Shown here in pieces: positions 991-1,742 of a stretch of DNA of 4,436 nt. Each line of letters opens with the position of its first letter. Position 1 is the stretch's first letter. A program made the translations under genes and the position numbers. The stretch is taken from IMG/VR virus record IMGVR_UViG_2526164662_000020. One strand, 5' to 3'. This DNA comes from a virus. Its lineage: Duplodnaviria; Heunggongvirae; Uroviricota; Caudoviricetes. The notes under the pieces were generated by a model. It worked only from the letters and a program-made list of their open reading frames with translations, did no database searches and was not told the DNA's origin.

Positions 991-1092
991 TTACCCTGCA
1001 GCGCCCGCTTCAGTAACGGTGACTTCAGCTACCGTGGCAAACTGACCATTACCGGAAATCACGGGGATACTCACTTTTCCAGCCTTAACGCC
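991..1092 (-). pseudogene. V: Out-of-frame 3' remnant of V encoding the conserved gpV C-terminus ([33 protein letters not shown], stop TAA at 993..991)
   Basis: The minus-strand frame shifted by one nucleotide from the V frame translates 1092..994 as [33 protein letters not shown], matching the lambda gpV C-terminus (...[29 protein letters not shown]). Its stop at 993..991 lies 13 nt before the G start with an intervening GGAGG, which is the normal V-G spacing. Confidence 0.7.
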
Positions 1093-1742
1093 GTCACAGT
1101 GATCACCATATCTTTCACAGCAATGGTTCCCGTTGACGGATCGGCGGAAACCGCTCTGAACGTCTTGTCGGTTGCACTTTCCGGCTCAAAAGAAACAGTC
1201 AGGGTGGTTGTTTTCCCTTTTGCCACCGTACCGGATGTCGGCGTCACCTTAATTGCAGTGACCGGCGTAATTTCGCTGCGTTCTTCCGCTACAGAAGGTT
1301 TGCCCACGTTGGTCACTTTCACCGTGCGGGTGATCACTTCTTTCGCCGTCACTGCCTTACCGATACTGCTGATCCAGCCACGAAACACATCCACCGTGCC
1401 ATTCGGAAAACGGATTTTATAGGCCCGCACATCCCCGCTTTCAAACCAGCCTATAAGCCCTTTCTGACCTTCTTCTCCCGGTTTCCAGGCCAGTGTAAAA
1501 CTGGTATCACCTGCAGATTTCTGTCCCTGCCCGGTCGCGCTCCAGTCCGCGTCTTCATCATCCAGGTAGTTATCATCGTAGGATTCTGCCGTCATCTCGC
1601 CCGGCGTCAGATCCTTCACCTTAGCCAGTCGCTGCCAGTCATCGTCTGACAACGGGTTTGCATAGGCGTCACCCTGACCGTTGTAAACCCACAGAGTGGT
1701 ACCGGCACCTTTTACCGGCTCCAGGGGATTTGGTGTTGCCAT
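1071..1742 (-). CDS. V: Major tail tube protein gpV, C-terminally truncated by a frameshift (223 aa as encoded; conserved C-terminal end is out of frame)
   Basis: [67 protein letters not shown]...[39 protein letters not shown]... matches lambda gpV nearly residue for residue ([22 protein letters not shown]...). ATG at 1742..1740 preceded by GAGGA. The homologous frame is lost at about 1093-1094 and the encoded protein ends ...[13 protein letters not shown] with stop at 1073..1071. Confidence 0.88.

Follow-up and report, generated by a model that had tools for sequence, protein, structure and literature searches.

A one-base gap in a G-run of tail tube gene V in a draft Escherichia coli DEC10F prophage contig, probably an error of the deposited consensus

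Introduction

In one lambdoid prophage contig of Escherichia coli, the major tail tube gene V stops early, and its conserved C-terminus continues in the adjacent reading frame. Was a base lost from this gene in the cell, is the gene read in two frames, or was the base lost on the way to the deposited sequence? A first-pass annotation, made from the sequence alone, had proposed that a single missing base splits V and had named as alternatives a lesion of the prophage and a sequencing or assembly indel. Here we locate the missing base, describe the protein that its restoration yields, survey related copies of the site and weigh the explanations against one another.

Results

The window and its gene layout

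The window, meaning the whole stretch of DNA analysed, is the entire 4436-nt contig AIGU01000034.1 of the draft E. coli DEC10F genome (GCA_000250095.2). According to the ORF list and Pfam gene calls it holds a head-tail module, all on the minus strand, in the order E (cut), FI, FII, Z, U, V, G, T, H (cut). V was thus located between U and G, as expected of a lambda-type gpV on the basis of its Pfam families and those of its neighbours. Both contig ends fall within prophage genes. In complete genomes the region is multi-copy, with a median of 2 and a maximum of 10 places per carrying genome, and this repetition of the prophage region explains a 4.4-kb contig that ends inside genes. No other assembly of DEC10F turned up, and the closest complete-genome match to the window is 97.9% identical. 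The DEC10F assembly presumably belongs to the drafts published in 2012 for the diarrheagenic DECA collection (Hazen et al., J Bacteriol 194:3026).

Two further features of the module were noted. The window is mosaic: between positions 1780 and 2240 on the minus strand, in U and the terminal part of Z, it differs from its three overall-closest relatives and agrees at many sites with E. coli strain 08-00022, with the opposite pattern elsewhere, as is typical of lambdoid recombination. The interval from the E stop (3471) to the FI start (3418) contains, at 3443-3463 on the minus strand, a strong hairpin resembling a terminator, GCGGGGGCGAAATGCCCCCGT, with 9 pairs of which 7 are G-C. It is followed by TCTTTTTT, directly 3' of the major capsid gene; the total of terminator-like hairpins in the window is not above the shuffled-sequence level.

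A single base is missing from a G-run in V

The features at issue are as follows.

1071..1742, minus strand: 5' part of the major tail tube gene V, 223 aa (ORF list and translation; annotated EHW96893.1, 'major tail protein V [Escherichia coli DEC10F]')
991..1092, minus strand: V 3' remnant in the -1 frame, encoding the last two Ig-like beta-strands and the C-terminal tail (translation)
1089..1094, minus strand: indel site, at which the window reads ACGGCG and relatives read ACGGGGG (DNA alignments)
546..977, minus strand: tail assembly chaperone gene G, intact (ORF list; Pfam Phage_TAC_2; RBS GGAGG; ATG at 977)

As deposited, the V ORF ends at a TGA stop at 1073..1071, and its last residues, ALRLEK, are out of frame. 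The -1 frame is open from 1188; it encodes the conserved V tail from 1092, ending ...AAG, and stops at 993..991. The G start lies 13 nt past the stop of this restored V frame, a spacing that is also annotated in relatives. In the deposited form, the apparent V-G gap is 93 nt, compared to 13 nt in relatives. The coordinates given in the first-pass annotation, including the 93-nt gap, all agreed with the ORF list and the translations.

Alignment of the window with six relatives and with the closest complete genomes showed that one base and no more is lacking from the G-run, at 1092-1093; the first-pass annotation had put the loss at about 1093-1094. At this site relatives read GTG ACG GGG GTT AAG GCT (GACGGGGGTT, GTGACGGGGGTTAAGG), and the window reads GTG ACG GCG TTA AGG CT (GACGGCGTT, GTGACGGCGTTAAGG). 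Across 1085-1100, the deposited deletion form is ACGGCGTT, and the in-frame forms are ACGGGCGTT or ACGGGGGTT. Besides the lost G, the window carries a G-to-C change at 1090 that is synonymous in the restored frame (GGG to GGC, Gly218). The gap is the sole indel over 4436 nt relative to the three closest relatives (97.8-97.9% identical), and it is genuinely present in the sequence as deposited, not a product of chance.

A GTG overlapping the premature V stop (GTGA) opens a 27-codon ORF at 1074..991 (minus strand), ending ...AAG. If the frameshift were real, termination-reinitiation could in principle yield this 27-codon fragment, for which no function suggests itself.

One added base restores a complete lambda-type tail tube protein

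Addition of one G (ACG GGC GTT) gave a 753-nt ORF of 250 aa, the length of every annotated intact V. The restored protein aligned over residues 1-245 with lambda gpV (PDB 6P3E; E 6.5e-123) and is collinear with it. The split-off piece is the conserved gpV C-terminus, as had been proposed. The tube domain is complete in both versions: in the deposited ORF, Pfam places Phage_TTP_12 (PF16461) at residues 18-152, over profile positions 1-135 of 135 (E 8e-70), and the N-terminal tube domain also aligns to PDB 2K4Q. Big_2 is partial in the deposited ORF, where it spans residues 160-219 and profile positions 1-57 of 79, and becomes whole only after the added G (residues 160-241, profile positions 1-79 of 79; Pfam).

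To place the shift within this domain, we used the AlphaFold model of a 98%-identical intact relative (P0024). The model gives the Ig domain eight strands, with pLDDT values of 78-94 over residues 161-240, and the strands at 222-230 and 236-244 fall beyond the shift. Judged by the model, the shift at codon 218 would lie between strands 6 and 7 of the eight-strand domain, with six of the eight strands kept.

The site is intact in nearly all related copies

Among about 15 billion proteins, the 223-aa product came from a single contig. The restored 250-aa protein, looked up by exact match, has no entry in the protein collection, and there is therefore no intact twin of this V allele on record.

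DNA comparison of the run itself, in search of the same indel among homologues, turned up a one-base contraction in only two of them, from E. coli 08-00022 and from the draft genome of E. coli DEC10D. About 600 related copies are intact at the site; 548 of them are places in complete genomes, 53 are on viral contigs and 8 on metagenome contigs. When an 86-nt query over the site was run against complete E. coli genomes, it found 549 places in 280 genomes, and the length seen in the window recurred at a single one, in strain 08-00022. For the other collections we used a site pattern that accepted G5, G4, GGGCG or GGCG. All 53 matching IMG/VR viral contigs carried the in-frame G5 in the intact 23-nt form, and all 8 matching metagenome contigs likewise had the intact 23-nt form; species-representative genomes had no match to the pattern. 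Across the pattern scans, G5 was present at 56 loci and G4 at one (08-00022), and GGCG was confined to the window.

Two other shifted copies occur beside further indels

In E. coli 08-00022 (NZ_CP013662.1), V (CP48_RS12655) reads GGGG at the site and carries the PGAP label 'frameshifted'. The strain is O136:H16 (PMC6456863). Given this serotype and 29 other positions at which its V differs from that of the window, the shift in 08-00022 is an independent event. The T gene of the same prophage (CP48_RS31420, 413 nt) is truly frameshifted, by a C6-to-C5 contraction that lies 0.9 kb from the V shift and corresponds to about window position 326; the prophage is otherwise intact. Two homopolymer contractions 0.9 kb apart suggest assembly errors in this genome.

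The draft DEC10D presumably stems from the same sequencing project as DEC10F, and sequencing in the DEC project was reportedly 454-based. Its V (EHW79767.1, on AIGS01000032.1) shows G5 to G4 at the same site, again reading GGGG. The 6958-nt contig contains about 10 other indels relative to a close reference, and roughly half of these shorten a 2- to 4-base run by one base. V itself has about five further small indels within 60 nt, three of which shorten runs by one (G2 to G1, A4 to A3, T3 to T2). Several genes on the contig come out short or split: the protease/scaffold gene C is divided into two parts of 278 and 200 aa, E is reduced to 294 aa, and in V the frame is lost and regained. Judging from these indels, the DEC10D contig is a low-quality consensus. 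In both DEC10D and 08-00022, then, the contraction at the V run is accompanied by other indels of technical appearance.

These two sequences also bear on whether the out-of-frame ending could be a natural short allele, as the first-pass annotation had allowed for related phages with an ...LRLEK end. The only other such endings, both ...TGLRLEK, are those of DEC10D and 08-00022. Each stands within a sequence that has further indels and looks technical, and they lend no support to a natural allele. Inheritance of a lesion within the DEC10 clone was likewise rejected: DEC10D and DEC10F do not share a V allele, 08-00022 belongs to O136:H16, and no other complete genome is affected.

An isolated homopolymer frameshift was also noted elsewhere in this module in another complete genome. 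In E. coli 2013C-4991 (NZ_CP027355.1), the head-tail joining gene FII (C6P55_RS11790) is annotated 'frameshifted', one base having been lost in a G-run at about window position 2951.

The window lacks signs of decay

Frameshifted genes are common in real EHEC and EPEC prophages. We sought signs of decay in the window and found none, the other genes being open. From the indel to the V stop, over about 100 nt, the DNA is identical to that of intact class-A relatives (GACGGGGGTTAAGG), with zero substitutions. Differences between V and its relatives are mostly synonymous, at ratios of 11:5 to 17:8. Neither further lesions nor relaxed constraint was found in V and its neighbours. Compared to 72 related loci, only one substitution is private to the window; with one indel in 4436 nt and one singleton SNP, the local error rate is not visibly high. 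The private substitution, absent from all of 67 aligned related loci, lies at 966 (minus strand), in codon 4 of the chaperone gene G, where AAA to AAT gives Lys4Asn.

Discussion

Origin of the missing base

We consider it reasonably probable that the split V is an error of the deposited consensus in a draft contig. The base appears to have been lost in sequencing or consensus building and not in the cell: one G would have been dropped from a short G-run whose true sequence is probably ACG GGC GTT, in a contig that covers 4.4 kb of a multi-copy lambdoid prophage region in draft DEC10F. In the organism itself, V would then be intact and ordinary, encoding a lambda-type tail tube protein of 250 aa with tube domain and Big_2, and G would follow 13 nt later. 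The two alternatives named in the first-pass annotation were the right pair. We favour the consensus indel over the lesion because the site is in a G-run, the allele is unique, decay is absent and the same contraction is present in error-bearing assemblies. A homopolymer site, a single affected assembly and similar errors in the comparable assemblies DEC10D and 08-00022 are found together here. If the C in GGCG is real, however, the base was lost from a run no longer than G3, a context less prone to error than G5; with an affected run that was probably G3 and not G5, a technical under-call is less automatic.

The same G-to-C change, which excludes a simple G5 under-call, is among the observations that speak for a real and very recent one-base deletion in the DEC10F prophage V, as the first lesion of prophage decay. 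We regard such a deletion, the main rival to a consensus error, as possible but rather unlikely. It would be unique to one draft contig, albeit one that is otherwise of good quality, and would have left no secondary decay in V or its neighbours. Slippage in G-runs is a normal mutational route, but the contraction is present in only 1 of 549 complete-genome copies, and the two other occurrences at the run are in assemblies with evident indel errors. Once formed, the allele could persist in a lysogen, as lambda gpV lacking its C-domain still forms tails (PMC8718954).

An assembly chimera appears very improbable. Reads of paralogous copies, of class A and of class B (AAACGGCGTGGCG, VT1-Sakai type), would have been merged so that the class-B 7-mer ACGGCGT was spliced one base out of register into class-A context. 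The window does contain exactly this 7-mer, the C is found elsewhere only in class B, and the region is present in a median of 2 and at most 10 copies per carrier genome. Nevertheless, the class-B variants beside the site (GTAAAC upstream, GTGGCGACA downstream) are absent from the window, and a single shared base matches by accident with a 1-in-3 chance.

Possible recoding at V

The one candidate signal for reading V in two frames is the following.

1071..1077, minus strand: A_AAG tetramer directly before the premature UGA (G GAA AAG TGA) (motif scan)

A motif scan of the 118-nt zone of frame overlap found no X_XXY_YYZ heptamer, in agreement with the earlier statement that nothing at the site resembles one; the A_AAG tetramer had gone unremarked and is the sole -1 slip-prone motif within the zone. 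A -1 slip at A_AAG gives full-length gpV with ALRLEK replacing GVKAGK. A_AAG is the most shift-prone tetramer in E. coli, where tetramers without a stimulator reach about 0.15%, compared to a background of 0.11% (PMC4066793). For the 83 nt starting at the A_AAG motif, the predicted fold was no more stable than that of shuffled sequence (z = -0.74). The nucleotides of the A_AAG site are present in every intact relative and are thus not selected for a recoding role. The two-frame arrangement is not conserved: all 53 viral contigs and all 8 metagenome contigs have V as a single ORF, as do 548 of the 549 complete-genome places. In terms of the structural model, the shift at codon 218 would fall inside the Ig domain and not at a domain boundary, where both products could fold. 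A programmed -1 frameshift was rejected on these grounds (no heptamer, A_AAG as the only motif, an unremarkable fold, absence from relatives), and recoding at V is very unlikely.

A functional two-frame V, producing mostly the 223-aa gpV and, by a minority -1 slip at G_GAA_AAG, full-length gpV for tails of mixed subunits, some with a folded Ig domain and some lacking one as in SPP1 gp17.1/gp17.1*, is hardly credible: the shift-prone A_AAG does abut the 0-frame stop, a -1 slip there re-enters the conserved frame, and SPP1 offers a precedent for an Ig-like domain added to a tube protein by frameshifting (PMC8718954), but the site has neither a heptamer nor a better-than-shuffled fold, stimulator-free tetramers stay near background, about 600 relatives have a single ORF, and the shift is within the Ig domain, away from its boundary. 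We give next to no credence to an elaboration in which the V G-run would be a real recurrent slippage hotspot with partial -1 rescue at G_GAA_AAG_UGA, and mixed-subunit virions would make this a lambdoid counterpart of SPP1 gp17.1/gp17.1*.

Consequences of either reading

If the consensus is in error, EHW96893.1 is a mis-annotated truncated gpV, and one G has to be added to the contig sequence. With a real deletion, tails should still form because the tube domain is intact; the Ig-like domain, lacking two of its eight strands, probably could not fold in the modelled arrangement, and virions would be poorly infectious. G-V translational coupling may also weaken through the 93-nt untranslated gap. 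The result would be one more defective lambdoid prophage in an EPEC/EHEC strain, with a phenotype already known from C-domain deletions of lambda gpV. According to a review, lambda tails still assemble when gpV lacks its C-domain, with activity about 100-fold lower (PMC8718954, citing Pell et al. 2010). The earlier statement that the domain is dispensable therefore holds for tail formation but was overstated, given this loss of activity and a cut that falls inside the Ig domain. The V split is no new biology and is ordinary under either reading. Single-base frameshifts in short homopolymers, on short prophage contigs of early drafts, call for comparison with relatives and sister assemblies before a biological reading is made.

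Comparison with known systems

At this site the window has counterparts in the V genes of 08-00022 and DEC10D, in which the same G-run is contracted by one base and the protein has the out-of-frame end ...T(G/A)LRLEK*. They differ from the window in reading GGGG instead of GGCG, in their V alleles elsewhere and in having more indels nearby.

SPP1 gp17.1/gp17.1* resembles the present case in that a siphophage tube protein has an Ig-like decoration encoded in another frame (PMC8718954). In gp17.1*, an FN3 domain is added by a programmed frameshift at a domain boundary, in a defined 3:1 ratio. By contrast, the shift in the window lies inside a domain, lacks a slippery heptamer or stimulator, and is absent from relatives.

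The programmed site of lambda G-T, G_GGA_AAG, is present in the window at 570..564 (minus strand), near the end of G, whereas a heptamer of this kind is missing from the V site. With G_GGA_AAG in place and the T frame (519..106) running open into the start of H, the recoding site of the tail chaperones is intact.

With lambda gpV itself (PDB 6P3E, 8IYK; domains 2K4Q, 2L04), the restored protein shares the layout of tube domain plus Big_2, and the window has lambda's gene order E-FI-FII-Z-U-V-G-T-H. Relative to lambda gpV, the deposited ORF breaks off within the Ig-like domain, at residue 223, and the restored allele has a C-terminal tail that is 4 residues longer (...TEAGAAG).
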